Below, piece after piece: positions 7,001-30,058 of a stretch of 32,000 nucleotides of DNA. This stretch comes from Candidatus Saccharimonadota bacterium (lineage in GTDB: Bacteria > Patescibacteriota > Patescibacteriia > 2-12-FULL-60-25): NCBI GenBank assembly GCA_016699205.1, contig CP064964.1:330001-362000 (forward strand). Direction: 5' to 3'. The notes under the pieces are model-generated. The model was not told where the DNA came from. It saw only the letters and a program-made list of their open reading frames with translations, and searched no databases. Both the position numbers and the translations under genes were made by a program. Within the stretch, counting starts at the first letter, position 1; every line of letters starts with the position of its first letter.

Positions 7001-9859
7001 GATTGCTTGTGTATTTGTTGCGCCGTTATTAAACCGCGCGGCGAGATTTGTGCCGCCGCTCAAGCCTGCAAGAGCAATGTCAAGACCAATGTTTAAACCC
7101 GTTGAATTTAGACCGCCGTCATCGGGATTAATAATGAGCTGAGTCGTATCCCCTGTTTGGTTACCAGAATTAGTCGCGCTCGCGATTCTTTGACCAAAAC
7201 GAGCTGTTCCAGAACCCGTTAGTGCGTTGTTTACACGGAATTCGCGATTTGATTGGACAATGTTAGCGCTCGTGATCGAAAAATCCGCCTGCGTCGTTCC
7301 GCCATTGGCGCCAAGGTGCAGCTGCCTTCCGGTTAATGCATTGATGTACGTATCTCCGCTAGCCGTACGAATTGTAAAGACATCAGAGCTGTTGCCTTGT
7401 TGCGCATAAATCGTGTCCCCTGCGCCCGTTACTCTGAGCGCGTGACTTGAGGCGCTTGCACCTACATTCATCGTATAGTTACCGCCGCCGGTCGTCTCAC
7501 CTGCAACCGTCACAATACCTGTTGTACCCACCGTGATGCGATTCGTGCCGTTTGTTTCAAGCGCTAAACTCTGCGTATCATTTGTTCCGAGCACCGCGGT
7601 TGCGCCAAACGAATTACCATTTTGCTGGAAGAAGTTGCTCGTCGAAGGGATCGTACCCGTCGCTATAGAAACCCATCCGGTATTTGTTCCAGCACCCGTC
7701 TCCTTGAGATAGAGCCGGCCATTCGTCGAGTCAACCGTCAGATCGCCCTGCGAACCCGCAATCAGACCCTCGGGCGTGGTTGAAGCATTGAAGATCTGGA
7801 AATTGCCGACAGGATTCTCTACCGTCAAAATACCGACCGCTTGGTTGGAAGTGCTCAATAAATGCAGCTTGGTCGCTGGGGTCGATGTACCAAAGCCGAC
7901 ATTGCCTTGGACAATGAGACCATTTGCCGGGGCGTTCACTGTTGAATACCCTGTTCCTCCGACCGCAAGCGAGCCATTTACACTCAGTCTATTTGAGGTA
8001 TATGGAACCGTTCCGATTGCGACTCCGCCCGTGGAGCTGACCGCAATAAATGAAGCTCCATTATACATCAGATCAAAACGGTTAGGAGCTGTTCCGTCGC
8101 TCGCCAATTTCCATTCATTTGTATCAGATGTCCCGACTGCTAAATAAGCATTGTTTGTAGCACGAACCGTTATTCCGTCTCCATTACCAACATTTACATA
8201 CAGCTTAGAAGTCGGGTTAACCGTGCCAATACCAACGTTTCCACTTGTTGCCGAGATCGAGAAGCGTTCATTTCCGGTTCCTGATCCACCGTCAAAAATC
8301 GAGAAACGTTGACCGGCGGATTGCGCTAACGACCAGGTCGATGTTCCAACATTCACGATGCCCGCAAATAATTGCGCCCAGCGTGTTGTCGTTGAACCAA
8401 GCGAGTAGGTATTGTGAGCTTCCGGGATAATGTCGCGGAAGGTTGAGGTGTTTTGTATGTAGATCGGGAGCGTGGTCGTATTTCCGCGAGCGGTGACCGT
8501 TTGAAGGGTGTCGGCGGTATTTGTACCCGTAGCCACACCGACCCATCCCGTGTTGGTGTTTGTTCCCGTTTCCTTAATGTACATGCGACCATTCGCCGAG
8601 TCGAAGGCGATATCGCCTAGCGAACCGGTAACCGCGCCTTCAGGGGAGGCTTGCGTAACAAATTGCTGTATATCACCCCCATTATTCTGATAGGTCGTGA
8701 TCGCTGTTGTGGAAGCAGCGCCTGTACCGATATGCAATCGTGCGGTAGCGGTTGTTACGCCGACACCAAAGTTGCCCGTGTTATTAAAGACACCGACTTG
8801 TGAACCACCGAGGTTGAGACGCATGTGCGTGCCGCTCGCCATGACGATACCCGTGCCGGAGCGGTTGGCGATATTGAAGTAGTCAGCGCCAAAGGAGTTG
8901 CCTAAGTACTGGATCATGCCCGAATTTGTACCAGTCGGATTTGTAGCATCGGCTGAGAGATACATTCGCGCACCGTCGGAGTCGGTGTGGAAGCTATAGC
9001 CGTCACTCGTGCCGCCGGCAACGATGCGGAAGTGAGAAGGCGAGAGGCCGCCAGATACAGGGACGCTTAGCTCAACCGGGCCTGAATCAACGACAATAAC
9101 TCGTCCGGCTCCAGCGCCGGTGTCATCATAAGCAGAATCGAGGGAGTTGCCCGTACTGCTCGCACTCGACAGCGCGAACCATCCTGTATTACCACCGTCT
9201 GTTGTCTTTACGTAGAGCTGTGATGCGCCGTCCGGACCATCGGTTCGCATGTATAAGCTACCGGAGTCGGCCGTATAGACACCTTCCGGACTACCCGTAT
9301 TTACGAACATGTTAACGGATCCGCCGGTCTGTGAAAGTTGAAGCAGTGATACATCCCCAGAAGCTGCCGCGTTGAAATTAAAACCGTATGTCACGGCACT
9401 TTGGTTGGCGAAAAAATTGATTGAAGAACTGTTATGACTGATATCCATCGAGTCATAGTTCATCTCAATATTTGCCGTCTGCCCTCCAAGCACATCAAAT
9501 AACGAATACGCCGCTACCGGATATACACCACCGGTGTTCGTAAAATACATCGATGCGTATGAGGAGTTATCAAAACGATCGACACCTTCACCTAGTTTTA
9601 AAAAGTCGATTCGATTTGGACCGGCATTTAATTTACCGACCGAGAAACCAGTCGATGTCGCATTACCGTCAATCCCGTCCCCTCCGATGACAAATGCCGG
9701 ATTGTATCCGAGGAATGATTGTGACCTCGAGGGGGCAAAAATGGATACTGGTTGCCCCTCAAGAGCTGTGATCGTACGACCCGCGTCGTAAGCGCCCTGC
9801 AAGGATCGGTGCCTCCAACATAGCTCGCAAAGGTGGAAGATGTAACGATCGCATCCCAA
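4085..9859 (-). CDS. giant tail-fibre-like surface protein, distal 1,924-codon ORF (knob/shaft repeats, LVIVD propeller, S74-type chaperone domain, lectin-like domain, PE-rich tail)
   Basis: Long uninterrupted ORF with Ser/Thr/Gly/Asn-rich repeats. Motifs are described in the findings. The listed start is a TTG with five stops directly upstream, no signal peptide, and a junk-like first ~20 residues. The true 5' end is therefore probably in the upstream ORF. Confidence 0.85.
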   Translation of the reverse strand: MGCDRYIFHLCELCWRHRSLQGAYDAGRTITALEGQPVSIFAPSRSQSFLGYNPAFVIGGDGIDGNATSTGFSVGKLNAGPNRIDFLKLGEGVDRFDNSSYASMYFTNTGGVYPVAAYSLFDVLGGQTANIEMNYDSMDISHNSSSINFFANQSAVTYGFNFNAAASGDVSLLQLSQTGGSVNMFVNTGSPEGVYTADSGSLYMRTDGPDGASQLYVKTTDGGNTGWFALSSASSTGNSLDSAYDDTGAGAGRVIVVDSGPVELSVPVSGGLSPSHFRIVAGGTSDGYSFHTDSDGARMYLSADATNPTGTNSGMIQYLGNSFGADYFNIANRSGTGIVMASGTHMRLNLGGSQVGVFNNTGNFGVGVTTATARLHIGTGAASTTAITTYQNNGGDIQQFVTQASPEGAVTGSLGDIAFDSANGRMYIKETGTNTNTGWVGVATGTNTADTLQTVTARGNTTTLPIYIQNTSTFRDIIPEAHNTYSLGSTTTRWAQLFAGIVNVGTSTWSLAQSAGQRFSIFDGGSGTGNERFSISATSGNVGIGTVNPTSKLYVNVGNGDGITVRATNNAYLAVGTSDTNEWKLASDGTAPNRFDLMYNGASFIAVSSTGGVAIGTVPYTSNRLSVNGSLAVGGTGYSTVNAPANGLIVQGNVGFGTSTPATKLHLLSTSNQAVGILTVENPVGNFQIFNASTTPEGLIAGSQGDLTVDSTNGRLYLKETGAGTNTGWVSIATGTIPSTSNFFQQNGNSFGATAVLGTNDTQSLALETNGTNRITVGTTGIVTVAGETTGGGNYTMNVGASASSHALRVTGAGDTIYAQQGNSSDVFTIRTASGDTYINALTGRQLHLGANGGTTQADFSITSANIVQSNREFRVNNALTGSGTARFGQRIASATNSGNQTGDTTQLIINPDDGGLNSTGLNIGLDIALAGLSGGTNLAARFNNGATNTQAIMTVANAGGDFQLFRVDAVPNGNTTGSIGDLAIDSTNGRMYIKETGTNTLTGWAVVATGTNSADTFQTVTARGNTTTLPIYVQNTSTFQTILPQTGLAFDLGASTSRWNNAWINTINLGTSTWSMTQNGDRQFQILNGPGGIVGPGAASRMVINNANGFVGFGDSTNPQWALTVENSLSEAAIVAKSNNAGGTARIGTSDNAGNTLGFYQYGASVGGTLGNIPLATGSFIRSNAPSGLMLNTDISTPIVFGTNNTEVMRVTEAQNVGIGTATPVSQFQVAARFDQPAISSIGLSAGTYAVDIQGRYAAVINRNSFELNIVDVTEPANMAVLGSVSVDKVPVDVVVLGHYVYVIANDTALLYIYDITDPVNISVSDAEGISAGPRALAVQGRYAYTAGDSGRFEVIDVADPSQATPVTSLGICADPARMTVKDRYAYVVCSTGELQIVDIRLPSAPSIVGTIATNRLPTDVQVQGRYAYVVSNRDRTLEIIDISNPASPVLSGTENTNRDPISVNVQGDMAYVTASGNDTVDFIDITNRASPIYLGSNRTGGSPQYAAVQGRYIFVPNSSDRILEVFDLGGSVFQQAEIGGLETDTLATREDASIGGELEVKGGLHVGRSANINGTFSVYPNRPGSASVFTIDESGQVGIGTLAPDNLLSVNGDASKIGGGTWQTFSDQRLKEDVSSFVDGLNVITKINPVHFRYNGLGGIATGTSYIGVIAQDVQGIAPYMVSSTRMKLNKDDVEKTEVFTFDPNALTYALINSVKEQQGLITDLQNRIGATTTGSITVTDSPIESTDVFVSTSTFSGVVVVKERVNFGSDTVGQAKMLSGATQLRVRFENTYDKQPIVSITPIGLKSIDYGVENVTVEGFDIAMRPEQAEAVLFNWTAFGAEEGIVTISDGTTSTVEIILGGPIIPDIATDTGIEPPPEVPASPTSTEPAPESAPTPEPEPTPEPEPAPEPAPEPAPEPAP
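4088..4200 (-). repeat. tandem 6-nt-periodic repeat encoding the C-terminal PEPAPE/PEPEPT tail
   Basis: The plus strand reads ggtgcaggctcaggggctggctctggtgctggctccggagcaggctccggttcaggagtcggctctggttccgga. On the minus strand this translates to ...PTPEPEPTPEPEPAPEPAPEPAPEPAP*. Confidence 0.85.
4670..4985 (-). other. S74-type intramolecular chaperone / autoproteolysis domain inside the giant ORF
   Basis: GGGTWQTFSDQRLKEDVSSFVDGLNVITKINPVHFRYN...IGVIAQDVQGIAPYMV...LTYALINSVKEQQGLITDLQNRI. The SDxRLK motif (Ser codon TCA at 4978..4976) plus the terminal coiled helix is the hallmark of the endosialidase/tail-fibre chaperone domain. Confidence 0.75.
5263..6120 (-). other. seven LVIVD-type repeats (predicted 7-blade beta-propeller) inside the giant ORF
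   Basis: There are seven ~42-aa units of the form V(Q/K)GRYAYVV...(L/F)ExIDIsxPxxPxxxG. Examples are VQGRYAYVVSNRDRTLEIIDISNPASPVLSG and VQGRYAYTAGDSGRFEVIDVADPSQATPVTS. Confidence 0.75.
8391..8512 (-). repeat. intragenic DNA repeat, copy in the 1,924-codon ORF
   Basis: Hand alignment to 11726..11847 gives 99 of 122 identical positions. A ~59-nt core has only 4 mismatches (gaggtgttttgtatgtagatcgggagcgtggtcgtatttccgcgagcggtgac). It encodes ...TARGNTTTLPIYIQNTSTFRDIIPE.HN.YSLG. Confidence 0.8.
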
Positions 9860-10751
9860 TCACTATTATCACCATCACAGGTTGTTTAACAAACAATTGA
9901 TTTGTAGCTCCAACTGCATCCGTCTGAAAGTAAATTGACCCACTTTCAGCTACGATTACGCTCTCCGGGGACCCGACGCCAACGTACTGAATGATGGATG
10001 CTACATCGGTATCGTTCGACAAACGCAATAACGCCTGCTGATTTGCGTTTGCAGAATTGGAAATATTCATCGCTGCAAGTGAACTGATTTCCGTATTGTT
10101 CAGTGCAAAATTGGATTTCGTGCTACCGCCATTGCCTAACAAAGAAAAACCAAAGCTGTTTAGATCATGGTTGTAGTAAGCAAATGTTCCTGATGCCCCG
10201 GCTGGATTCAATACATCATCCGTCATGCCAAATGATGAAATATCATTTGCGAAATTTGATCGGCCAAATACGATTCCTCGGCTCGTGTTCAAATCGGTAG
10301 TGATGGCGAGACCTGGCACGCTTGAGAACGCGCCGGGTGTAGGCACCGAGATATAGACCGGGGTTGAAGTCGATGATGTCAAAATTGCATTGCCGCCGTC
10401 ATAAGCAGTTTGAAGAGATACTGCCGTCGTTGTTGACGTTAGCGAGGAAACATCCGCAAGTGCAACCCATCCCGTCGTACCACCCCCATTAAAGACCTTT
10501 ACATAAACCTGCGTTGACGAGCTGCCGCTTGAATCCGTGCGGTAGTACATAGAACCGAGCGTTGCAGAAACGACTCCTTCCGGATCACCCGTTCCTACGT
10601 ATTGATTCATTGCAGCCACGTTGTTGGCTAAACGTAATACGCTCACTTCCGGGGCCGTCGAGTTATTGTAAATGAGCACGGCTCCATCCGTCCCAAATCC
10701 TGTCAGCGCAATCTGACCATCGCCGATAATATCAACGTCCGTAGCCTCCAA
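9759..10751 (-). CDS. middle fragment (330 codons) of the tail-fibre-like mega-gene; probably not an independent gene
   Basis: TTG start with no SD and no signal peptide. It contains two knob motifs. Its last ~40 residues look out of frame, and the repeat modules continue across both of its borders in other frames. It overlaps the next ORF by 101 nt. Confidence 0.6.
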   Translation of the reverse strand: MEATDVDIIGDGQIALTGFGTDGAVLIYNNSTAPEVSVLRLANNVAAMNQYVGTGDPEGVVSATLGSMYYRTDSSGSSSTQVYVKVFNGGGTTGWVALADVSSLTSTTTAVSLQTAYDGGNAILTSSTSTPVYISVPTPGAFSSVPGLAITTDLNTSRGIVFGRSNFANDISSFGMTDDVLNPAGASGTFAYYNHDLNSFGFSLLGNGGSTKSNFALNNTEISSLAAMNISNSANANQQALLRLSNDTDVASIIQYVGVGSPESVIVAESGSIYFQTDAVGATNQLFVKQPVMVIIVIGMRSLHLPPLRAMLEAPILAGRLRRGSYDHSS

Positions 10752-10797
10752 GAAAGCCGTGCCAGACTTGGATTGAAGGCAATACGCGCTCCGGAAT

Positions 10798-13700
10798 TTA
10801 ATAAACCGAGCTCAAATCATTTGTTTCTTTTGTATGCGAAAGATAGCCCGTGTAGGTGGTAGACCAGTTTGTTAAATCATTACCAAAAACAGCGACCGTG
10901 CCGCTCGAGAACCCAAAATCAAATGTTCCCACCGAGAAACCACCGGCTGTGTCGGTAGGACTCTGTATCTGGATAGCGGGATAGTAGTCGAGGCCGCCGC
11001 TAACAACTCCGCTGACATTAAGCTGAACCGGACCGCTGTCGAGTGAGATAGCACGTCCACTGCCGGCGCCAGATGCGCCGTCGTACGCTAAGTCGAGCGT
11101 TGGAAATGCCACAGACGTGCCCGTAGCTACTCCAACCCATCCGGTATTTGTATTTGTTCCTGACTCTTTGATGTAGAGTCGGCCGCTTGTGGAATCGACA
11201 GCTAAGTCGCCACGAGATCCAGTAATAGAACCATTTGGGTCCGCCTGAATAGTAAACAGCTGATAGTCGCCTGCCGTATTTCCGATCGTCATGATCGGCG
11301 TTGTGCTTGCGCTAGAGGCCAACAAATCGAGCTTTGTTGCCGGTGTCGATGTTCCAATACCAACAAACCCATTTGGCATGATGATTCTGGCTGCGTTGTC
11401 ATCGACACGGATAAACGTATTGGAATTCCAGCCGATATAATCTCCAATAGAAACCGTATTTGCTACTGGATCAAGCAAAAAGATCTCTTCACCGCTATTG
11501 CCGCCCATCAAAACACTTCCTCCTAGCACATGCAGACGCGCAAGCGGTACCGTCGTTTGATCAGAAGTACCAATTCCAACATCTCCATTTGGATTGACAC
11601 GGATCGAGTCATTTAAATTAGCGGTGTTTCTCAATGAGAATCCGGCATTTGATGCTTGTTCCAAGGCCCAGGTACTTGAACCGACATAGGTCGTAACCGC
11701 GTACAGCTCTTTCCATCGCGTTGTTGTTGTGCCGAGCGAGTACAGGTTGTGCGTTTCCGGAACAATGTCTCTGAACGTCGAGGTGTTTTGTACGTAGATC
11801 GGAAGCGTGGTCGTATTTCCGCGTGCGGTGACGGTTTGTAACGTATCGACTTCCGTCCCGGATCCTGTTCCCGTGGCAAACGGAGCCCAGCCCGTAACCG
11901 TGGCTGTGCCAGTTTCTTTAATGTAGAAACGCCCCCCGACAAGATCAACAGCAAGATCCCCTATCGATCCAGAGACAAATCCTTCTGGTGACCCCGTTGC
12001 GTTGAACATCTGAATGTCCCCATTCGTATTTTGCAAGGTGAAAATCGGAACGATGGTTGACGCGCCGGAATTTACTTGCAATCTCGATGTCGCCGTTGTG
12101 ACGCCGATCCCCAAACTACCCTCCATCACGTTCAAGGAGTTTGATCCAGCCGAATACAGATTGTAATTGTTTACTCCAACACCTGCCTGATTTGCCAAAA
12201 AAAGACCGTAGTTATTCGTAATCGTTGCACCAGCGCCATTATTAAAGGTCTCGCCATAAAGCGCATAGGCACTCGTTACATTTCCCGCTCCAAACGAATA
12301 GGACTGTCCAAACACGCCAATCGAACTTCCGATCGTTCCTGTTCCACCAATGGCGGAAATACCGATTGAGCCATACGACGTTTGCAATAACCCGGTGCCA
12401 ATATGTGAAACCTGGCCTCTGACACCTGAAATTTCGCTTGTAAAATTTGTCGCGCCAGCTGTTTCTACAGAAGATTCGTAGGCGCTTACAGATGCGGGTG
12501 TACTAGCTTCACCAGAATTCAGCCTCAAAAACGATGCGACACCGCGCGTATAATCGGCGAGAGGGCTTGTAAACTCTTCCTCTACATTCAGCACCACCGA
12601 GCCCGGTGTGCTCGCGAACACAGATCCTCCGTCAATAATTCCGGAGTTTCCTACGGTCATATGACCGAGAATCTGGAAATTGTCAGAGACCGTCGAGGTT
12701 CCTGCGCCGGTGATATTAAGGACACCGGTTGAGGTACCGCCCGCAAACTGAATCGTGTTCGTAGTTGAATTGCCGCGGTTCGTGACGGTTTGTAACGTGT
12801 CGACTTCTGTGGTTGATACATTAGAAATTGCGAGATCTAAATCATCCAATACATCCTGAATATTGGTCGCGTTAGAGAAGGTGAATTCATCAAAGACACC
12901 GATCAACCAGGCACCGGAGTTCGTGGAGGTTGTGCCTGTGGCATTGATGGCAATCGTGTTGATGTAGAGGGTGTTGGAGAGATTTAGGGAGACACCGGTC
13001 GCCGAATCAAAGTTGATATACGTCGCACCGACATTGGTCGCAAACAGATTGGTGCTCGTCGTATTGGTACCCGTCGCATTCACCCAGGTGATGTCTGTAA
13101 AGTTGGCTGCACCGAGAACGTTAAGATTTGTTGTTGTCACTGTTCCAAACTCGCCATTCCAGCGATTGGCGGCGCTTCCAAGGGAGTAGGCAAGGTCGAG
13201 AGCTGGAACAAGGTCGGTGTTGAAACGGCCATTCACCGAGATAAGATCGGCGGAAGAACTGCCCAAGGTCGTATTCCCCTGCACATCAAAATTGCCAGCG
13301 ATCGTGGAAGTAACGGTTGAAGAGCTCATCGTGAAGTAGGCTCCGAGGAAGCCTCCGGTCAGGATGTTGAAATTCAGGTTCTGATCGAGAGCAAGAAGCG
13401 TGTTGGCAGCGGCCGTCGAGGAAGCGGAGAAGGTGTCGACCGCTTCTGCATTCAAAGCGTATGGAAAGGCCGAGAGCTGAACGCGGGGGTTGGCTTCTGC
13501 ATCCGCGCCGATACGGACACCGAGGAAGAGCGTCTGGTTCCAATCGATGTAAGACGGGAAGACAGCACAGGCGGAACCGAGCTGAACAGCAAAGTAGCCA
13601 TCAGCATCCGGGGTGATTTGGGGACAAGCACCGCCATCGTAGACACCCTTCCAGAGAAGCGGACCGGAGGAAGATGCGGTGTCGGTGTATGCACCCAACG

Positions 13701-13908
13701 TCTGGGACGAGTAGATGCTGAATTGAATGTCCGTCGGAACCGTAATAGGAGCAAGGGTCGATGAACGGAGGCGAGATTGGTAGTTAATTTCCCGAGGAAC
13801 GGAAGCAAGCGCGGAATTTACTTGAAAGAAACCTAAGATAGCGAAAAAAACTACCGTGAATACGGCTATCAAAGAGCGGAAGGTGCTTTTCTTACCCGAA
13901 AGGGGCAT
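10798..13908 (-). CDS. giant tail-fibre-like surface protein, proximal 1,036-codon ORF with signal anchor
   Basis: It has an N-terminal signal/anchor (KKSTFRSLIAVFTVVFFAILGFFQVNSALA). The head begins REINYQSRL...FSIYSS...LLWKGVYDGG. It carries the fibre motifs LAYSLGSAANRW and LYSLGTTTTRW and two knob motifs (GGRFYIKETGTATVTGW, SGRLYIKESGTNTNTGW). Confidence 0.85.
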   Translation of the reverse strand: MPLSGKKSTFRSLIAVFTVVFFAILGFFQVNSALASVPREINYQSRLRSSTLAPITVPTDIQFSIYSSQTLGAYTDTASSSGPLLWKGVYDGGACPQITPDADGYFAVQLGSACAVFPSYIDWNQTLFLGVRIGADAEANPRVQLSAFPYALNAEAVDTFSASSTAAANTLLALDQNLNFNILTGGFLGAYFTMSSSTVTSTIAGNFDVQGNTTLGSSSADLISVNGRFNTDLVPALDLAYSLGSAANRWNGEFGTVTTTNLNVLGAANFTDITWVNATGTNTTSTNLFATNVGATYINFDSATGVSLNLSNTLYINTIAINATGTTSTNSGAWLIGVFDEFTFSNATNIQDVLDDLDLAISNVSTTEVDTLQTVTNRGNSTTNTIQFAGGTSTGVLNITGAGTSTVSDNFQILGHMTVGNSGIIDGGSVFASTPGSVVLNVEEEFTSPLADYTRGVASFLRLNSGEASTPASVSAYESSVETAGATNFTSEISGVRGQVSHIGTGLLQTSYGSIGISAIGGTGTIGSSIGVFGQSYSFGAGNVTSAYALYGETFNNGAGATITNNYGLFLANQAGVGVNNYNLYSAGSNSLNVMEGSLGIGVTTATSRLQVNSGASTIVPIFTLQNTNGDIQMFNATGSPEGFVSGSIGDLAVDLVGGRFYIKETGTATVTGWAPFATGTGSGTEVDTLQTVTARGNTTTLPIYVQNTSTFRDIVPETHNLYSLGTTTTRWKELYAVTTYVGSSTWALEQASNAGFSLRNTANLNDSIRVNPNGDVGIGTSDQTTVPLARLHVLGGSVLMGGNSGEEIFLLDPVANTVSIGDYIGWNSNTFIRVDDNAARIIMPNGFVGIGTSTPATKLDLLASSASTTPIMTIGNTAGDYQLFTIQADPNGSITGSRGDLAVDSTSGRLYIKESGTNTNTGWVGVATGTSVAFPTLDLAYDGASGAGSGRAISLDSGPVQLNVSGVVSGGLDYYPAIQIQSPTDTAGGFSVGTFDFGFSSGTVAVFGNDLTNWSTTYTGYLSHTKETNDLSSVY
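11726..11847 (-). repeat. intragenic DNA repeat, copy in the 1,036-codon ORF
   Basis: Partner of 8391..8512 (see that entry). A more diverged third copy lies at about 6700..6830. Confidence 0.8.
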
Positions 13909-13952
13909 TTTTGCTTTTGTATTCGGGATTTTTTGTCCCTATTACAGTAATT

Positions 13953-20739: not shown

Positions 20740-21882
20740 TTATCGACGCTGAAGCACAACAATGCCAGGAAGCTTTCCTTTGAGACTTAGAAACTCGAGC
20801 ATAGCTCCCCCACCAGTCGAGATGAAGTCAAACCACTTGGCGGTTTTGGTTTCTGCGAGAATTGGCAGCGTATCTCCGCCACCGGAAACACCAAAGGCAG
20901 AACCCTTTGCACGCGTCGCGATCATGCGCGCCAAAAAGCGCGAGCCATTTCCACAAGGCTTGCACTCGGTCCAGCCAACGGGACCATTCCAGAGAATGGT
21001 TTTAGACGCGCCGATGATTTTTGACCAAGCGGCGAGCGTCGATGGTCCAATGTCGACGACAATGTCCTTTTTACCGATTGCATCGACAGAAACGCGCTTA
21101 AGTTTTGGATTTGCGATGAGCTTATCTGCGACCATGACATCCGACGGGAGGACGAGGCCGGTTTTTTTGAGCAGTTTTGCGGCTTCTTTGATCGAGGCTT
21201 TCTCCAAATAGGATTTACCGACTTGGAGTTTTTTGGCTGCGAGGAATGGCGTCGCCATCGCTCCCCCAACGAGGACCTGGTCACAGCGCTCAAGCAGCTC
21301 CTTCATAACAGGAATCTTGCTCGATAGCTTTTTTCCACCGATCACAGCAATGAATGGCGATGATGGCTTTTCCAAAAGCCGACCAAGATGCACAACCTCC
21401 TGAGCGAGACTTGGGCCTGCATAGGACGGAAGCATTTTTGCGAGACCGACAACCGAGGCATGCGCGCGATGGCAGGAAGCGAATGCATCGTTCACAAAGA
21501 AATATCCGAGTGATGCCCATGCTTTTACCAGCGGCACGGCATTTTTCTCTTCTCCTTTTTCAAAGCGGACATTTTCAAGGAGATGGATAGAGCCTGGCTT
21601 GGCTTTTCCAAGACGATCCGCAAGACGTTTGCGTTCCTCGGGTTTGGAAACAGACTCTGGATGAAAAGCGATGTCGAGTCCGTAGCGCTTCATGCGTTTG
21701 GCGAGCGGGCGCGTTGAGTGAAGCTTGTCTTTACGTTTTGGGCGTCCAAAATGCGTAAGCAAAATCACGATAGCGCCGCGCTTTACAAGCTGCTTGATGA
21801 ATGGAACTGAGCGCTCAAGCTTGAGCGAGCCCTCGAGACCGCGGGCTGCGGCTTCCGGAACATTCCAATCGACGCGTACCAA
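20740..21882 (-). CDS. pgk: phosphoglycerate kinase (5' end unresolved; probably begins at ATG 21938 in another frame)
   Basis: VRVDWNVP...ILLTHFGRP...NVRFEKGEEKN...FVNDAFASCHRAHAS...GGAMATPFLAAK...WNGPVGW...GGGDT...STGGGAMLEFL. The only in-frame start is a TTG that truncates the conserved first strand. See the pgk finding. Confidence 0.92.
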   Translation of the reverse strand: MVRVDWNVPEAAARGLEGSLKLERSVPFIKQLVKRGAIVILLTHFGRPKRKDKLHSTRPLAKRMKRYGLDIAFHPESVSKPEERKRLADRLGKAKPGSIHLLENVRFEKGEEKNAVPLVKAWASLGYFFVNDAFASCHRAHASVVGLAKMLPSYAGPSLAQEVVHLGRLLEKPSSPFIAVIGGKKLSSKIPVMKELLERCDQVLVGGAMATPFLAAKKLQVGKSYLEKASIKEAAKLLKKTGLVLPSDVMVADKLIANPKLKRVSVDAIGKKDIVVDIGPSTLAAWSKIIGASKTILWNGPVGWTECKPCGNGSRFLARMIATRAKGSAFGVSGGGDTLPILAETKTAKWFDFISTGGGAMLEFLSLKGKLPGIVVLQRR

Positions 21883-21938
21883 GATCGGTACGCCTTTTAT
21901 TTTGTGTTTTGGGGTAGAGTCCGGAGATTTAGCTTCAT

Positions 21939-22952
21939 TTATTTTTTATGTAACGATCGGCCAACCTGCAATGCCATCTCTGCCAAGCGATGGGAGTATG
22001 CCCACTCGTTATCGTACCAAGCGATGACTTTTACCAGATCGCCATCGACGACTTTTGTGAGGCCGAGGTCGGCAATCGCCGAGGCTGGGTTGCCGATGAA
22101 GTCGGATGAGACGAGCGGCTCTTCCGTAACTTCCAAAATTCCTTTCCAGCGGGCATTCTTGGATGCTTTTTTGAGCGCGTCATTTACCTGCTCAACCGTC
22201 ACCTTCTTTTTAAGGACAAAGGTGAAGTCGGAAAGCGAGACAACTTGAACAGGAACGCGGATCGAGAGGCCGTCAAAGAGTCCTTTTAATTCCGGGATAA
22301 CTTCTGTTGTCGCGATAGCAGCGCCCGTAGTCGTCGGGACGATATTCTCGGCAGCTGCACGGGCGCGGCGTAGATCTTTGTGCGGACCGTCTTGGAGATT
22401 TTGGTCGGCGGTGTAAGCGTGGATCGTTGTCATCATCGCTTTTTTGACTCCAAAGATTTCGTGCATGACAGCAGCAACAGGTGTTGTGCAATTGGTGGTA
22501 CAGCTCGCATTATTAATGACCTGCGCGCCTTTGCCCGCTTCTTTTTCATTCACGCCGATCACGAATGTTGGCACGTCTCCCCCCTTGGCTGGCGCGCTGA
22601 TGATCACGCGCTTGGCTCCAGCCTCAATATGTTTGGAGGCACCTGCCAAATCCGTAAAGTGTCCCGTACATTCAAGAACGATATCGACATTGAGTTTGGC
22701 CCAGGGCAAAACGGCTGGATCTTTTTCTGCGTAGACCGCGATGGTTTGCCCGCCAACCTTGAGCGACTTGGCATCAGCCGAGACTGTGCGATCCCAAGCG
22801 CGATACGCCGTGTCATGCTTTAAAAGGTGCGCGAGCGTTTTGGTGTCCGTGAGATCATTGATCGCCACGACTTCAAATCCAGGCTTGTCGAAACCGGCCT
22901 TGAAGACATTGCGGCCGATGCGGCCGAACCCGTTGATAGCGATGCGTGGCAT
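21939..22952 (-). CDS. gap: glyceraldehyde-3-phosphate dehydrogenase
   Basis: MPRIAINGFGRIGRNVF...NASCTTNCTTPV...WYDNEWAYS. ATG 22952 is preferred over the listed upstream start 22973. Confidence 0.95.
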   Translation of the reverse strand: MPRIAINGFGRIGRNVFKAGFDKPGFEVVAINDLTDTKTLAHLLKHDTAYRAWDRTVSADAKSLKVGGQTIAVYAEKDPAVLPWAKLNVDIVLECTGHFTDLAGASKHIEAGAKRVIISAPAKGGDVPTFVIGVNEKEAGKGAQVINNASCTTNCTTPVAAVMHEIFGVKKAMMTTIHAYTADQNLQDGPHKDLRRARAAAENIVPTTTGAAIATTEVIPELKGLFDGLSIRVPVQVVSLSDFTFVLKKKVTVEQVNDALKKASKNARWKGILEVTEEPLVSSDFIGNPASAIADLGLTKVVDGDLVKVIAWYDNEWAYSHRLAEMALQVGRSLHKK

Positions 22953-23704: not shown

Positions 23705-24475
23705 CTATTTGACGGGTTCGGCGAAGGCCTTGTTCATCGTCTGACCATTCGGGACAAGCGAACCTCCGAGGCGGGCGCGGTTGGATTCCCAGTCTTTCTT
23801 GCCGTCATTGATCGCCTGAGCCATCAAGTCGCCAGTCATGGCGATAGCTTTCACGGCGTCGTCGTTAGCCGGAATCGGAAAATCGATATCGGACGGATCG
23901 ACGTTGGAGTCACAAACGGCGATGACTTTCACGCCGCGCTTGGTAGCTTCATCGAGAGCGGTCTTGTCCTTCTTAACGTCGAAGATGAAAAGCGCATCCG
24001 GGATGCGGGTCATGTCCTGAATACCACCGATCTTCTTTTCCAAAATCTTGATGAGTTCTGCGATCTTGAGCTGTTCAAACTTGGTGTATTTTCCGAGTTC
24101 ACCCTTCTCCTGCTTGCGCTTCAAATCCTTGTACTTGCGGATCTGGGCAGCGATGGAGGAAAAGTTGGTAAGCGTACCACCGAGCCAGCGCTCGTTTACG
24201 TATGGCATACCACAAGCTTTGGCAGCTGCCTCAACGAGAGGGGCGGCCTGCTTTTTGGTACCAACGAAGAGCACGACACCGCCGCGACCAGCGGTCTTGC
24301 GAGCAAAACCAAAGGCTTCTTCCATCGCCTTTTGGGTCTCTTCAAGGTTAATGATGTGGATGCCTTGGCGGGAGCCAAAAATGAACTTTTTCATCTTTGG
24401 GTGCCATTTGGATGTCTGGTGGCCAAAGTGCATGCCGGCTTGCAGCATGTCAGCCAATTGCGGGATCTTTCCCAT
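23705..24475 (-). CDS. rpsB: 30S ribosomal protein S2
   Basis: MLQAGMHFGHQTSKWHPKMKKFIFGSRQGIHIINLEET...FVGTKKQA...NERWLGGTLTNF. AAGGAG lies 7 nt upstream of the ATG. Confidence 0.95.
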   Translation of the reverse strand: MGKIPQLADMLQAGMHFGHQTSKWHPKMKKFIFGSRQGIHIINLEETQKAMEEAFGFARKTAGRGGVVLFVGTKKQAAPLVEAAAKACGMPYVNERWLGGTLTNFSSIAAQIRKYKDLKRKQEKGELGKYTKFEQLKIAELIKILEKKIGGIQDMTRIPDALFIFDVKKDKTALDEATKRGVKVIAVCDSNVDPSDIDFPIPANDDAVKAIAMTGDLMAQAINDGKKDWESNRARLGGSLVPNGQTMNKAFAEPVK

Positions 24476-24581
24476 ATCTTAGCTCCTTTTTTACGCGCGT
24501 CCTGGGACTCCGGATCCGCCGAGGCGGACAAGGGGCTGGAGTCTCCAATAGGTTGGACGAACGGTGTGATTTAGTGCCAAA

Positions 24582-24610
24582 AGAATAGCGGAACCCCTTG
24601 ATTTTGGCAA
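24582..24610 (-). promoter_or_regulatory. candidate rpsB promoter (followed by a ~100-nt structured leader)
   Basis: The minus strand reads TTGCCA-17 nt-TATTCT. The downstream leader contains nested GC-rich stems (GACTCC...TCCGC-CTCG-GCGGA...GGAGTC). Confidence 0.45.
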
Positions 24611-24657
24611 GAGTTTGGGCTATTCATATGTAACGCTCTTTTTCCCAGGAGGTTTTC

Positions 24658-25230
24658 GTGAGTGAACGATATCGGACACAGAGGATCAAACGCTGGGGCT
24701 CCAAATCGGAACGGGTACAGAACCCCTACTGGTTGAACCCAAATCAGATCGAGCCTATCGACCTGGAGCATCTCTCCCGCCTGAACGAATCCGAGGATGT
24801 ATCCAGGATGCGAAAGGCTGTCGAAGAGTTTGCTGCAGCCGATGGGGACATGCTCCTCGTCCGTGACTCGGCGAATCAGGTTCATAGCGAGCACAGCCGC
24901 ATCGTCGGATTCCTCACGTTCGCGATCGTCCCTGTCCTCGATGGACGGAAGCTTATCGTGACCGGGGTTCGAATCGAACCGGAGTGCCGCGTCGACGAGG
25001 TTCACACTGTTCTCCAAGCAGAGCTTGCTGACATTGCGAAGCGTAACGACATCCGACACTTTGACCAGGTACCCAGGCCGACGAGCGAGCGGCGCGTCCG
25101 CAACTCCGGCTACAGCGCGGTCAAGATCGTCGAACGCTTTGACGATCTGGTCCCCGATGATCCCAAGATCGACGATACTGCAGATGGTACGCCGACGAGA
25201 AGAATGGGGATTCCCGGGCGTAAACACTGA
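24658..25230 (+). CDS. hypothetical protein (acidic, loosely acetyltransferase-like, not assignable)
   Basis: GTG start 5 nt after a perfect AGGAGG. Third codon positions are G/C-rich in this frame. A plus-strand terminator follows 7 nt after the stop. The fully overlapping minus ORF 24571..25227 is its antisense shadow. Confidence 0.6.
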   Translation: MSERYRTQRIKRWGSKSERVQNPYWLNPNQIEPIDLEHLSRLNESEDVSRMRKAVEEFAAADGDMLLVRDSANQVHSEHSRIVGFLTFAIVPVLDGRKLIVTGVRIEPECRVDEVHTVLQAELADIAKRNDIRHFDQVPRPTSERRVRNSGYSAVKIVERFDDLVPDDPKIDDTADGTPTRRMGIPGRKH

Positions 25231-25236
25231 CTACAA

Positions 25237-25280
25237 GACCCCTGTACCAACACTCGGTACAGGGGTCGCTGCATTTTTTA
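25237..25280 (+). terminator. rho-independent terminator of the plus-strand orphan gene
   Basis: 12-bp stem gacccctgtacc/ggtacaggggtc with a 7-nt loop, followed by gctgcatttttta. Confidence 0.65.
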
Positions 25281-25321
25281 TAAAAAAGAAACGCGCCCCA
25301 CCAGAATTGGTGGGGCGCGCG
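25280..25321 (-). terminator. rho-independent terminator of lipoprotein gene 1
   Basis: The minus strand reads CGCGCCCCACC-AATTCT-GGTGGGGCGCG followed by TTTCTTTTTTAT, starting 4 nt after the TGA stop. Confidence 0.8.
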
Positions 25322-25324
25322 AGT

Positions 25325-26116
25325 TCATGAGGGCGTGATGCGGAGGACGATGATGGAGCCGAAAGCCGTCGGACGACTTTCCTGGCTCACATGACCATCC
25401 GCCGGTGCCGTGCTGCGCTCTACACCATCTTCCCACAGCCGATAGCCGGAGGAGTAGGCGGGGCAGCCGGTAGACGTGCACGCCGGACCCGACGCGTACG
25501 TCGGGTAGGCGTAGAAGGGACCGCTGCCAATGGTCGTTCGTCCAGGATCGGGAACGGTGATCTCGCACTCGGTCGTGCGAGCATCGATGCGGCGAAGGAC
25601 GTCGCAGGCGGAAGCGAAGACCGTGAGGCCTTCTGGATCCCGGTTGTCCGGCATGCGGAAGACTCCGCCGCCGGTGACCGTCCAGTAGAACTGAATCCTC
25701 CATCCAGTCACCTCGGGCGAGCCCTCGGTGTTCTGGAAGCGGATACAGAATCCGCTCGTGGAGTCTTCGCAGCGGCGCGGAGGGCCGCCATCGATGGGGA
25801 CGGGACCGGAGTCTCGTCCGGCGTCGGGAGGTGTTGCCGCATCCGTACCGGCGTCCGTGCCTGCATCGACTCCCCCGTCGGGGTCGATCCAGGCGTCGGG
25901 CAGAGGACCTGCGTCGCCGTCGGGAACCCAGGCATCGACTCCGCCATCGAGCGGCATGCTGCCATCGGGCAAGTCGGCGTCCGCGACGAGAGGCACGCAC
26001 AGCGAGCCCCCCGGCTCGTACATCGTGCCTACGGGACATCCGAGGGCACTGCGATCGAGCATGCAACCCGGCAGAGCCAGGAGCGTCACACAGAACAGGA
26101 GCGATTTTTGAGTCAT
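25325..26116 (-). CDS. secreted lipoprotein, Asp/Gly/Ala/Pro-rich linker plus 6-Cys C-terminal domain (paralog 1)
   Basis: Lipobox LLALPGC. The linker reads DADLPDGSMPLDGGVDAWVPDGDAGPLPDAWIDPDGGVDAGTDAGTDA. The C-terminal domain has CEDSTSGFCIRF...CDVLRRID...ECEI...ACTSTGCPAY. AGGAGG lies 5 nt before the ATG. Confidence 0.8.
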   Translation of the reverse strand: MTQKSLLFCVTLLALPGCMLDRSALGCPVGTMYEPGGSLCVPLVADADLPDGSMPLDGGVDAWVPDGDAGPLPDAWIDPDGGVDAGTDAGTDAATPPDAGRDSGPVPIDGGPPRRCEDSTSGFCIRFQNTEGSPEVTGWRIQFYWTVTGGGVFRMPDNRDPEGLTVFASACDVLRRIDARTTECEITVPDPGRTTIGSGPFYAYPTYASGPACTSTGCPAYSSGYRLWEDGVERSTAPADGHVSQESRPTAFGSIIVLRITPS

Positions 26117-26171
26117 TCGCCCTCCTTTTTGGGGCTAGAGGTTAAAGAGCTATCCAGAATCTGAACATCGA

Positions 26172-26200
26172 AATATAGCATAAAATAGGGGTTTTGTCAA
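26172..26200 (-). promoter_or_regulatory. strong sigma70-type promoter of lipoprotein gene 1
   Basis: The minus strand reads TTGACA-17 nt-(TGC)TATATT: -35 at 26200..26195 and -10 at 26177..26172, with an extended -10 TG. Confidence 0.6.
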
Positions 26201-26240
26201 TGGAATAAGAAGAGCCCTCCAATAGGCATTGGAGGGCTCA
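26200..26240 (-). terminator. rho-independent terminator of lipoprotein gene 2
   Basis: 12-bp stem gagccctccaat/attggagggctc with a 4-nt loop. The minus strand continues TTCTTATTCC. Confidence 0.7.
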
Positions 26241-26265
26241 ACAGAGCGATTATTCAGAACGCGTT

Positions 26266-26988
26266 TTATGGGGTGCGGAACTCCACAGCCATGATCATGC
26301 CATGAGGCGTGGGGCGGCGCGCGAGACTAACTGGGCCAGCACCAGGCATCGACGGGACGGATATTCCATCGATCCAGAACCAATAGCCTGTGAAGAAACC
26401 TGCGCACATCGTGCTGTCGCAGCGCGGGGTGGTTGCGAACGGGTAGAGGTAGATCACGCGCTCGGACGAGAGCGGAATCTCCGTGTACAGACAGTCGACC
26501 GTGTTGGGATCGATACGGCGGAGGCCGCCGACGCAGCTGTCGTACGTCCAGCCAGAATCGACAGTGACTCCCCCTTCCGTCCAGTAACGGATCGAGATAA
26601 TGGCGGTCGTCGGCGAGACAGGCTCGGGGTCTGTGAAACGAATACAGAGTCCGAGCTCGTCGTCGCAGGGATCGGGCGGGACTGGAGCGTCTCCGTCGAA
26701 CGAAGCGTCTGACGCCGCGTCATACGAACCATCGTACGAGCCATCTCGGTCGATGGCGGCATCGAGGAGCGAGCCGTCGGGTCGGACGCGTCCGGAATCA
26801 AACGAGCTATCGACCACATCGGTATCGGCAGACAGGCTGCTGTCGACGAGGATGTTGGCGTCGAGGTCGTAGCGACTCGCGTCGAAGGATGCATCGAGGG
26901 AGGCCGTCTCCGGCCGCGGATCGAAGTCGAGGATCAGGCCGCAGCCCGATACCGCAAACAATGAGAGTACGGAAATCAGGCGTGTCAT
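26266..26988 (-). CDS. secreted lipoprotein, Asp/Ser-rich linker plus 6-Cys C-terminal domain (paralog 2)
   Basis: Lipobox LFAVSGC. The linker reads SLDASFDASRYDLDANILVDSSLSADTDVVDSSFDSG. The C-terminal domain is colinear with paralog 1 (CDDELGLCIRF...CVGGLRRID...DCLY...RCDSTMCAGF). AAGGAG lies 6 nt before the ATG. Confidence 0.8.
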   Translation of the reverse strand: MTRLISVLSLFAVSGCGLILDFDPRPETASLDASFDASRYDLDANILVDSSLSADTDVVDSSFDSGRVRPDGSLLDAAIDRDGSYDGSYDAASDASFDGDAPVPPDPCDDELGLCIRFTDPEPVSPTTAIISIRYWTEGGVTVDSGWTYDSCVGGLRRIDPNTVDCLYTEIPLSSERVIYLYPFATTPRCDSTMCAGFFTGYWFWIDGISVPSMPGAGPVSLARRPTPHGMIMAVEFRTP

Positions 26989-27017
26989 CGCCAGCTCCTT
27001 TCAAGGTGCGTCAATCG

Positions 27018-27046
27018 ACACTAGTATTTAAATGTGTTTTTGTCAA
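27018..27046 (-). promoter_or_regulatory. candidate promoter of lipoprotein gene 2
   Basis: The minus strand reads ATTGACAAAAAC, with -35 TTGACA at 27046..27041. This is nearly the same -35 context as the paralog promoter (ATTGACAAAACC). The -10 17 nt downstream (TAGTGT) is weak. Confidence 0.4.
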
Positions 27047-27050
27047 TCGA

Positions 27051-27683
27051 TTATGCCTGAAAACCACCACCGGCAGTTTCTGATTTTTTTGGGATAATAA
27101 TCTTTGGCTGGAGCTTCATCTCCTGACGGATTTCCTCGCGCATTTTTCTGACGCTCTTGTTGGCTGGCTCGTCCTCGCGCGTCGCGCTACTCGCTACACG
27201 CTCCATCTTGTTTGCACGACCTGCGGCTCCGCGCATTCTGTCGAGCACGCTCATGTCCTCGCTTCCCGCTTCAGTCGTCTCGCCACCTTCTGCTTCTGCA
27301 CGCTGCTCGACCGCAATACGTTTCAGTCGATTTTTAATGGCACCAGCGGTGAGACCGGGGTTGGCTTTCAGCTGCGCATCACGGCTAGCCGTTAACACCA
27401 TCTCTCGCGCCGTCTTGGCCGTTCTTGCGAGTTTCACATCCTGCAACGCCTCCACAAGATTCTTCAGATCACTATGACGCCAGCCGGCACGATGCTCCCC
27501 CGTCAATACTTTGGCGATTTCTTTATGATCTTTTGCGCCGAGACCACGTCGGGATAGCGCTGACTTCATTTTTTCCTTATCGATTTTTCCAAGCGAGCGC
27601 TCAATGCGCTTGGCCGATTGACCGTGGAAAATCATTTTCCCGATACCGGAACCGATATCGACATTGGAGGCGCGTTGGGGCAT
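27051..27683 (-). CDS. hypothetical highly charged protein
   Basis: 210 aa, Lys/Arg/Glu/Ala-rich and probably helical. It has no TM helix and no recognisable family. The overlapping plus-strand ORFs are Ser/Arg-rich shadows. Confidence 0.55.
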   Translation of the reverse strand: MPQRASNVDIGSGIGKMIFHGQSAKRIERSLGKIDKEKMKSALSRRGLGAKDHKEIAKVLTGEHRAGWRHSDLKNLVEALQDVKLARTAKTAREMVLTASRDAQLKANPGLTAGAIKNRLKRIAVEQRAEAEGGETTEAGSEDMSVLDRMRGAAGRANKMERVASSATREDEPANKSVRKMREEIRQEMKLQPKIIIPKKSETAGGGFQA

Positions 27684-27710
27684 AAAAATATATTACCTCG
27701 AATGTAGGCT

Positions 27711-27756
27711 CATAAAAAGCGAAGCGCCCGCCCAGAAGAATTCCGGGCGGGCGCGA
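27711..27756 (-). terminator. rho-independent terminator of the oxygenase gene
   Basis: The minus strand reads GCGCCCGCCCGG-AATTCTT-CTGGGCGGGCGC followed by TTCGCTTTTTAT, starting 3 nt after the stop. Confidence 0.8.
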
Positions 27757-27758
27757 TC

Positions 27759-28817
27759 TCAGGCGGCGGGCTTCACTGCTTTCTCGCTAAGCGTCCTCAT
27801 CATGCGGGTACCGCACTTTTCGCGCTGATTAAAGTACCACTCCGCCGATGGCTCGTTAGTGAAACGGCCGATCGGCTCAAGCCACTCGCTTGTACGAATG
27901 TTGACAAACATCGTTGTGGAGACGCGCCAAGGCGCAACGCCCGAAAGCTTTTCCGCCTCGATTTTGGCGCGCGCTTCTTCACCGATCACGACTTCATGGA
28001 ATCCACGAAGCGTGCGGCCAGCGGTGAGATGCTCGAGTACACGGCCGCTCTGCAAGAGCAGACAGCCGTCGTCTGGAAGACGTACGGCGAACTTACGCCA
28101 GCCGCGCGTCCAAGCCCAGAGACCAGGGTAATTGGAACGGCCGTGCATGGTGATACACGAAAGGTCGTTGTGGAAACCGGCGGCGACTGTGCCCGGAGCA
28201 CCATGCTTGGAGAGATCGAAGCCGGTCGGAGCTAGCTTACGTGTGCCCAGATGAAGCTTGCTTGTGAACAGATCCGGCGATTCGCCGAAGCCGATTGCGA
28301 GAAGCTCCATCACACTGTCGACGGTCGATCCCATCGCAAGACCCCAGGCATCACTAAGGGTCGTCCAACCGTCGATTTCCATCGGCGTAAAACGCGGCAG
28401 GAAGTCGAGGTCAGGGAACTCGCTTTCAGCAGGGCGATCACCCACGGGGTCCATGTAGCGCTCTTTGGGATCTTTTTCCGGGGGCTCAAGCGGCTTTGCA
28501 TCGTCGGGAATGAGGTGCAAGACCTCGGTACGACGACGCGGCAGCTCCGTGAACGGAGGCCGCCAGCCGGTCTCGTAGATCTGCTTGCCGTTTGCGAGCG
28601 GCGGCTGGACGTATTGCTCCTTCACCTTCGGCGGAAGCCGGTAGAAGTCCTGCATCATGTTGCGGTATCGGACCGGTAGTCCGCGGTCGACACGGGGGTC
28701 GCGGAGGATGAGCACACCGAGCTCTTCCATCGCGGCCGCCACCTGCCTCGCTGCAACTTCGTCGTCGCCGGTCTTGAGGTACTGGGTCAGATCCACGATG
28801 GGAATCTCGATGTCCAC
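27759..28817 (-). CDS. 2-oxoglutarate/Fe(II)-dependent oxygenase (isopenicillin-N-synthase-like family)
   Basis: It has the N-terminal IPIVDL motif. The facial triad and 2OG-binding motif are in the usual order: HND (GFHNDLSCITMHG), distal His (RGFHEVV) and RVS (WRVSTTMF). GTG start with AAGGAG 6 nt upstream. Confidence 0.8.
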   Translation of the reverse strand: MDIEIPIVDLTQYLKTGDDEVAARQVAAAMEELGVLILRDPRVDRGLPVRYRNMMQDFYRLPPKVKEQYVQPPLANGKQIYETGWRPPFTELPRRRTEVLHLIPDDAKPLEPPEKDPKERYMDPVGDRPAESEFPDLDFLPRFTPMEIDGWTTLSDAWGLAMGSTVDSVMELLAIGFGESPDLFTSKLHLGTRKLAPTGFDLSKHGAPGTVAAGFHNDLSCITMHGRSNYPGLWAWTRGWRKFAVRLPDDGCLLLQSGRVLEHLTAGRTLRGFHEVVIGEEARAKIEAEKLSGVAPWRVSTTMFVNIRTSEWLEPIGRFTNEPSAEWYFNQREKCGTRMMRTLSEKAVKPAA

Positions 28818-28891
28818 GCTGTTCTCCTTTGAAAGTGCCGACTAAACGATATGGCGCGGGAAAAGCGTGGTCTAGCATTTTGGTCAAGGGT

Positions 28892-28921
28892 TTAACAAAA
28901 CACGCCCGAGCGGGCGTGTGT
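28892..28921 (-). terminator. rho-independent terminator of prfA
   Basis: The minus strand reads ACACGCCCG-CTC-GGGCGTGT followed by TTTGTT, directly after the TAA stop. Confidence 0.7.
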
Positions 28922-29992
28922 TTATTCTTCCTCTTCCTCATTCCCCTTCTTACCGGATTTTACGGCCGCGATGAGCGGCTCGAGATCGCCATCAAGAATC
29001 TGCTCGATATTGTGCCAGGACTTTTTGATGCGGTGATCGGTAATGCGATCTTGCGGCGTGTTGTAGGTACGGATTTTTTCTGAGCGGTCGCCAGAACCGA
29101 TTTGATTACGGCGGTCAGCCTCGAGTGAAGCGCGCTTTTTTTCTTCTTGTGCTTCCCAGATACGTGCGCGGAGAACGGTCATGGCGCGTTCACGATTTTG
29201 CAGCTGCGAACGTTCATCCTGACAAGACACGACAACGCCGGTTGGAATGTGCGTGATGCGCACGGCAGATTTGGTCGTGTTAACCGATTGACCGCCTTTA
29301 CCTCCGGCACAGAAGGTGTCGATGCGGAGATCTTTTGTATCAATAACGACTTCCGTTTCTTCAATCTCTGGAAGCACGGCGACGGTCGCGGTTGAGGTGT
29401 GGATGCGGCCGGCTTTTTCCGTGACTGGAACGCGTTGGACGCGATGGACGCCGGATTCAAATTTAAGCGAGCCGTAAGCACCGGTTCCATCGATTGCCAT
29501 CACCGCTTCTTTGTAGCCGCCGCTTTCATTGGTCGACTCGGAAACAAGCGAGGTCTTCCAGCCGCGACGTTCTGCGTAGCGCAAATACATGCGGAGCAAA
29601 TCGCCCGCGAACAACGAGGCCTCGTCGCCGCCGGCACCAGCGCGGATTTCAATGATGACGTCGCTTGCATCATGCGGGTCTGGCGGAACCATCATTAATT
29701 CAAAACGCTCGAGCGAGGCGGCGAGCTCAGGCTCTAAACGGATAAGCTCGGAGGCTCCCATTTCTTTCATCTCCGCATCGTCCGAGGCTGCAGCTTCTTT
29801 TGCATCGCGGACAGCCTGGTCGAGATCGAGCAACTCCTTGGCGACCTCAGCTTTATCGCGCGCATGCGTGAAGGCGATGGAGGCGACCTTCAGTTTTTTT
29901 GGATCACCAAGAACTTCCGGTGTCGCGAGTGCGGCTTCGGCTTTAATAAGCTCTTCCATGGCCTGTTTGGCCTGTGTCAGAAGTTGTGACAT
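28922..29992 (-). CDS. prfA: peptide chain release factor 1
   Basis: 356 aa. It has the RF1-type tripeptide region [14 protein letters not shown] (PxT class, not the SPF of RF2) and the GGQ motif ([10 protein letters not shown]). The C-terminus is acidic (EEEEE). Confidence 0.93.
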
Positions 29993-30058
29993 ATGAAAAA
30001 CCGGCTCAGCGTTCCGGCGTCATGATAACACCGATAACGAAAAAGCCGGTTTAACTAC

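Follow-up and report, generated by a model that had tools for sequence, protein, structure and literature searches.

Gene organisation at the gap-pgk junction

The locus lies on the minus strand of a 32,000-nucleotide stretch of DNA, referred to throughout as the window, in which gap, pgk, a SIMPL-domain gene and eno occur in the same order as in related genomes. The features that bear on the start of pgk are as follows:

21939..22952, minus strand: gap, coding for a type I glyceraldehyde-3-phosphate dehydrogenase (ORF list; NCBIfam TIGR01534)
21897..21938, minus strand: start codon ATG and codons 1-9 of pgk, then four codons out of frame and a stop codon (translation)
21911..21914, minus strand: CCCC, one base shorter than the CCCCC of the nearest relatives, the real point of the frame break (blastn gap placement)
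21900..21903, minus strand: AAAA run before the TAA, not the lesion site (identical AAAACACAAAATAAAAGG in the intact loci L164-L167 and L175)
20740..21912, minus strand: rest of pgk in the PGK frame, codon 10 (CCA, Pro) through the stop codon 20742..20740 (Pfam PF00162)
21880..21882, minus strand: TTG, Leu20 of the intact protein and sole remaining canonical start of the PGK frame
21874..21893, minus strand: 8-bp hairpin GCGUACCG-AUCU-UGGUACGC (predicted folds)

The gap product is identified as a type I GAPDH by NCBIfam TIGR01534 (410 bits), and the stop codon of its gene (TAA, 21941..21939, minus strand) directly adjoins an ATG at 21938, so that the two form a TAAATG junction. The original prediction had pointed to this ATG and to the TAA at 21899..21897 which closes its frame, and both were confirmed at these positions. 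The frame opened by the ATG encodes MKLNLRTLPQNTK and reads MKLNLRTLP|QNTK*, where MKLNLRTLP is identical to the first nine residues in the intact PGKs P0001, P0121-P0123 and P0131-P0134. The frame encoding the PGK domain itself reads *KINEAKSPDSTPKHKIKGVPILVRVDWNVP (…PKHKIKGVPILVRVDWNVP), and translation of the window revealed no ATG, GTG or TTG in it between the upstream stop and the TTG at 21882, which is its first canonical start. The proposal that pgk has no usable in-frame start was thus borne out, and translation likewise confirmed that the conserved N-terminus is split over two frames, -1 apart, a relation equivalent to the absence of one base from the window.

In the public annotation the PGK of the window (P0129) is called as a protein of 380 aa started at the TTG at 21882. 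When its N-terminal part is joined or restored, the protein matches Pfam PF00162 with 362.7 bits over profile positions 3-377 of 379 (cut-off 27), compared to 356 bits over positions 12-377 for the protein started at the TTG. The top solved-structure matches of the window PGK are all PGKs, and in alignment with the solved PGKs the KGVPI motif of the window falls opposite the conserved KGKRV with which their first strand begins.

The gap-pgk junction in related genomes

A set of 23 gap-pgk junctions (L001-L007, L084-L087 and L164-L175) was compared with the window at the DNA level. The compared relatives belong to Candidatus Uhrbacteria (Patescibacteria/CPR) and encode PGKs about 65-97% identical to that of the window. 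Scans of genome and metagenome contig collections yielded no relative above 87% PGK identity, and the relatives above this value were drawn from the protein cluster of P0001, in which no member showed fewer than 11 differences in 379 residues, such that about 97% PGK protein identity is the closest found. An exact-sequence look-up of the window PGK and enolase matched no record. The five loci of the nearest clade, most often referred to below, derive from Logan SRR26425196 (L164), JGI 3300056825 (L165, a contig of 1.11 Mb), JGI 3300057002 (L166), JGI 3300056624 (L167) and NCBI GCA_963851785.1 (L175, a contig of 1.07 Mb).

In each of the 23 related junctions an ATG at the gap stop, or adjoining it, opens an uninterrupted PGK frame. 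The GAPDH of the relatives is called at 337 aa and ends immediately 5' of the pgk ATG, while their PGKs comprise 396-399 aa and begin MKLNLRTLPPKHKIKGVPILVRVD. Among the 17 closest PGKs (65-96% identity), 15 have lengths of 396-399 aa and start with MK(L/S/T)…K(I/L/V)KG.P(I/V)LVRVDWNVP, the closest beginning MKLNLRTLPPKHKIKGVPILVRVDWNVP. The original prediction had suggested looking for the same two-frame arrangement at the gap-pgk junctions of relatives; it was found in none of the 23.

Shorter PGKs have also been called in this group. P0008 and P0009 are called at 379 aa, from VRVD, yet the DNA upstream is intact, as it is for P0133, called at 380 aa. Gene callers also pick the internal TTG/GTG region in the intact relatives L002, L003 and L164. 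The short PGK calls in intact relatives reflect a preference of the gene callers for an internal GTG or TTG, and because internal starts are chosen where the gene is intact (P0008, P0009 and P0133), PGK N-termini are systematically mis-annotated in the clade.

Position and nature of the frame break

Alignment of the window with L164, L165, L166, L167 and L175 by blastn placed the gap at a run of C's, with four in the window and five in all five relatives. At every inspected base of the junction, AAAACACAAAATAAAAGG included, these five loci are identical to the window, with two exceptions, namely one G/A substitution inside gap and the occurrence of CTACCCCCAAAAC in the relatives versus CTACCCCAAAAC in the window. 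The translations agree with this placement. The protein of the relatives, …TLPPKHKIKG, equals the PGK frame of the window from 21912 onward and not …TLPQNTK-IKG; MKLNLRTLP is encoded in the ATG frame and PKHKIKG in that of PGK, which puts the switch of frame between 21914 and 21907.

Adding one C to the window restores a pgk of 399 aa which spans 20740..21938 and whose protein starts with MKLNLRTLPPKHKIKGVPILVRVDWNVPE. The first 87 nt (29 codons) of the restored gene are identical to those of L165, its N-terminal protein sequence is identical to those of L001 and L168, and the whole protein shares 96% identity with P0001 at 100% coverage. The alignments and translations demonstrate that, in position and nature, the break corresponds to a single C missing from a C5 run. 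The original prediction had placed the split at an AAAATAAAA run, 8-11 nt away from this point; the intact relatives carry the same AAAACACAAAATAAAAGG and differ only in having C5 in place of C4. Its suggestion of a one-base deletion in a homopolymer therefore stands as far as the deletion is concerned, while the A-run held responsible (21903..21900) is unchanged in the relatives and the lesion lies in the C-run at 21914..21911. Nor would five A's mark a simple error, as had been proposed, the run at issue being one of C's, of which the nearest relatives have five.

The codons upstream of the TTG also retain the imprint of translation in the ATG frame. Within the first 19 codons, the C-restored window differs from L001 in five and from L168 in eight, and because all 13 codon differences are synonymous, the comparison of these loci demonstrates that codons 1-19 have been under purifying selection in the ATG frame up to the lineage of the window. 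Given such coding evolution, the lesion would be either extremely recent or not real.

Phase variation at the C-run was considered and rejected, since five C's make a short run for such a mechanism and pgk has a housekeeping role.

Translation from non-canonical starts or by slippage

If the C4 run were taken at face value, several routes to a PGK might be envisaged. One of these requires no frameshift at all and has PGK initiate in its own frame at a non-canonical codon such as ATA at 21900 (giving MKGVPILVRVD) or ATC at 21885, both of which occur a short way 5' of the conserved strand. In bacteria, translation can begin at AUA and AUC with very low efficiency. There is, however, no Shine-Dalgarno (SD) sequence upstream of the ATA, which in the relatives varies between ATC, ATT, GTA and CTT, as expected for an internal Ile/Val/Leu codon, and the frame opened by the ATG is kept in all relatives, the changes in it being synonymous only. 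On these three grounds an ATA or ATC start was rejected, its probability being negligible.

A second route, put forward in the original prediction as a slippage-dependent start, assumes that the deletion is real and that full-length PGK arises when the Lys-tRNA in the P site slips by -1 on A_AAA (21903..21900) while the A site is occupied by the slow codon TAA (a 'shifty stop'). Such a slip would yield MKLNLRTLPQNTK-IKGVPILVRVD…, and a hairpin 3 nt downstream might help. Several features of the site are in keeping with such an event: the two frames stand in a -1 relation, AAA can pair again without mismatch on the AAA that overlaps it, a stop codon lies directly 3' of the slip site and the 8-bp hairpin begins 3 nt past this stop. 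Stop codons beside slippery runs can reportedly give frameshifting at the percent level. Against this, none of the 23 related junctions is frameshifted, and the AAAATAAAA run and the hairpin both recur in the intact relatives, so that neither would have evolved for slippage. The zero frame, CTA CCC CAA AAC ACA AAA TAA, contains no X XXY YYZ heptamer, leaving only the single-tRNA slip on A_AAA. The slip product had been regarded as a normal-looking PGK N-terminus, but it carries QNT in place of the conserved PKH (…LPQNTKIKG versus …LPPKHKIKG), whereas one added C gives exactly the sequence of the relatives. Slippage at the percent level would furthermore be a poor route to expressing a core glycolytic enzyme. 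Full-length PGK made by such a slip is consequently highly improbable.

A dedicated stimulatory structure would be expected 5-9 nt from the slip site. The predicted hairpin begins 3 nt past the premature TAA, overlaps part of the TTG and is also present in the unshifted relatives. The region folds no better than shuffled sequences (z = -1.3), and in a covariation test across 10 distinct relatives pairing is retained at 87.5%, versus 85.3% in shuffles, such that the evidence for selection on the predicted structure is weak. Neither Rfam nor tRNA scans gave a match in the window.

The site shares A_AAA before a stop and a downstream hairpin with known cases of programmed -1 frameshifting or 'shifty stops', such as dnaX (A AAA AAG) and the IS transposases, and by analogy with these low-level -1 slippage at the A_AAA of the window is mechanistically conceivable. 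It differs from them in that there is no tandem heptamer, no relative in which the shift occurs and no functional zero-frame product, while the hairpin and the A-run are also found in unshifted genes. Conservation, the defining feature of a programmed frameshift, is lacking, since the arrangement is present in none of the 23 relatives, and programmed slippage at pgk is, on the comparison of these junctions, very unlikely. A recoding event involving a pgk gene has also been described elsewhere, in that the pgk-tpi fusion of Thermotoga maritima is reportedly attributed to frameshifting. That event reportedly concerns the 3' end of the gene, is conserved at its locus and yields a bifunctional fusion, while the lesion in the window affects the 5' end, is a singleton and gives rise to no novel product.

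Consensus error versus genuine base loss

The deletion may alternatively be real and recent in the strain, with the ATG at 21938 giving a peptide of 13 residues and PGK being lost or truncated. Loss would make the locus a pseudogene or a minority variant, while the truncated form would be the 380 aa protein produced by re-initiation at the TTG at 21882. This TTG is in frame, lies 14 nt past the stop and is preceded, 10 nt upstream, by an SD-like AAAGG (21897..21893). Even where relatives are intact, gene callers choose this codon or the GTG beside it, and its product would still match the Pfam PGK profile with 356 bits. Should C4 be real, termination at 21897 followed by re-initiation at the TTG would be the most plausible route to PGK. 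Re-initiation here would, however, discard the 19 codons under purifying selection, KGVPI among them. The TTG is moreover partly buried in the predicted 8-bp hairpin and its equivalent codon in L085 is CTG, while the strong SD sites of the window consist of AAAGGAG at a spacing of 5-7 nt. In addition, pgk forms part of the conserved gap-pgk-eno core-glycolysis cluster, and fermentative bacteria of this kind depend on core glycolysis. A genuine and recent loss of the base, with PGK lost or truncated, is accordingly considered unlikely. It is decidedly improbable that C4 is real and that enough PGK is nevertheless made, be it by the hairpin-helped shifty-stop slip (21903..21897) or by re-initiation at the TTG after a 13-codon leader.

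The C4 lesion is a singleton among the 23 related junctions and lies inside a homopolymer. Homopolymer-length errors are known from long-read assemblies. The window PGK sits on an NCBI contig of 1,082,254 nt, and a contig of 1.08 Mb, the size of a whole CPR genome, is likely to stem from a long-read-type assembly. Long-contig sister assemblies of the same group contain homopolymer deletions which are clearly assembly-specific and thereby also speak against a genuine loss in the window. L167 and L165, from separate JGI samples, are 99.986% identical over 7,153 nt, and their sole difference, G5→G4 in L167, truncates pgk (P0127). In L168 a change of AAA to AA (A3→A2) breaks the C-terminus of pgk (P0130). 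The pgk gene of L175 is intact, and a base has been lost in an A-rich stretch of its tsf gene, with EF-Ts called at only 74 aa, unlike the tsf gene of the window, which is intact. As these singleton homopolymer deletions hit essential genes and differ between assemblies, they bear the signature of consensus errors. In one respect the window speaks for a real deletion: across the 7 kb aligned to L165 the gap in the C-run is its only unambiguous frame-breaking indel, and a window that is not obviously error-riddled over this length counts against an artefact.

The absent pgk start is very probably a consensus or assembly error in the C-run. According to this explanation pgk would be an ordinary gene of 399 aa, started at the ATG at 21938 and translationally coupled to gap via TAAATG, the frame of which would be broken in the record by the loss of one base from C5, leaving C4 at 21914..21911. 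The missing C would most probably represent an error in consensus homopolymer length within a metagenome assembly of long contigs. Once the C is put back, the ribosome would read ATG…CTA CCC CCA AAA CAC AAA ATA AAA GGC… and produce MKLNLRTLPPKHKIKGVPILVRVDWNVP without any special mechanism. The lesion resembles the homopolymer indel errors of metagenome-assembled genomes in that a single base is absent from a 5-base run and restoring it recovers a full-length conserved gene, in the identity of its flanks to those of relatives, in its location on a contig of ~1.08 Mb and in the occurrence of similar lesions in sister assemblies. The restored protein and the coupled TAAATG junction also conform to the bacterial PGK (PF00162) of a gap-pgk operon, from which the record of the window differs in that its frame is interrupted after codon 9.

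Implications for annotation

The frame break in pgk is not a new biological feature. The gene should be annotated as a PGK of 399 aa from the ATG at 21938, with one C restored. The public P0129, at 380 aa, is without 19 conserved N-terminal residues as a result of one missing C, and the value of the observation is mainly one of quality control. Were the deletion real, it would represent a small example of frameshift tolerance or rescue in a core glycolytic gene, a reading which nothing found here favours; were C4 real and PGK made, the locus would be a case in which a CPR bacterium with a reduced genome naturally rescues an essential glycolytic gene despite its frameshift.

Giant-gene region of the window

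Elsewhere in the window, a giant-gene region at about 13908..4085 is occupied by three abutting open frames (13938..10801, 10811..9762 and 9859..4088), while L175 has one gene of 3289 aa in their place. Two protein searches with the giant-gene frames recovered nothing but small fragments, the 3289 aa protein of L175 not being among the matches. The first junction between the frames in the window coincides with a difference of TTT (10816..10814) versus TTTT, and this region hints at possible further indels in the window.

Homopolymer indels in related assemblies and possible frame breaks in the window

In the nearest-clade NCBI relative GCA_963851785.1 (L175:8305-8920, corresponding approximately to window position 23265), tsf has lost a single base within an A-rich stretch, and this breaks the gene. 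The stretch reads GAGAAAAA-AAGC in this locus versus GAGAAAAAGAAGC in the window. The EF-Ts of L175 is called as a protein of only 74 aa, and tsf in the window is intact. Two further nearest-clade loci, L165 and L167, derived from separate JGI samples, share 99.986% identity across 7.15 kb, their sole difference being a G5→G4 change within pgk (L167:4060 versus L165:4060), which truncates the L167 PGK to 383 aa (P0127). In the related locus L168, AAA→AA at position 1969 lengthens PGK to 413 aa and leaves it with an aberrant C-terminal tail (P0130). The G5→G4 and AAA→AA changes suggest that homopolymer indels are common in the datasets behind L165, L167 and L168.

In the window, a giant-gene region (4085..13908, minus strand) is occupied by three abutting or overlapping open frames:

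13938..10801, minus strand, open frame of 1046 codons
10811..9762, minus strand, open frame of 350 codons
9859..4088, minus strand, open frame of 1924 codons

The first frame junction coincides with TTT in the window (10816..10814) versus TTTT in L175. Possibly, the region contains two more frame breaks in the window's assembly, or a giant gene for a surface protein has truly been rearranged here. In L175, the corresponding position is taken up by one gene encoding 3289 aa.

The pgk start and its upstream context

Gene callers took an internal GTG or TTG (VRVD) as the pgk start in three related loci (L002:743, L003:204 and L164:1109), despite the 19-20 codons upstream of the called start being intact and conserved in each. 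Public protein sets therefore systematically under-call the PGK N-termini of this clade (P0008, P0009 and P0133).

The 3' end of gap (21942..21953, minus strand) reads …CAT AAA AAA TAA (HKK*) in the window and its nearest clade. More distant relatives instead carry …GGA AAA TAA (…GK*), which provides a GGA/AAAGGA SD-like motif 7-9 nt upstream of the pgk ATG. The coupled pgk start of the nearest clade thus has no SD upstream of it.

A hairpin lies within the pgk coding sequence:

21874..21893, minus strand, 8-bp hairpin GCGUACCG/UGGUACGC over pgk codons 16-22

Most relatives retain it at the equivalent position, and two pairs are altered on both sides among them (L002 and L004, for example, have C-G in place of U-A). 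The hairpin may simply mirror the Gly-Val-Pro-Ile-Leu-Val-Arg codons, since shuffled controls pair nearly as well.

Higher-G+C stretch

Positions 24001..30000 have a G+C content of 0.56-0.58, versus about 0.50 across the remaining window. Several ORFs of this stretch (24571..25227, 25325..26116, 26266..26988 and 27051..27683) gave no Pfam match, and two further features are located here:

27759..28817, DIOX_N-domain protein
28922..29992, prfA

The part near 27700..28620 can be aligned to L175 only by allowing numerous gaps.
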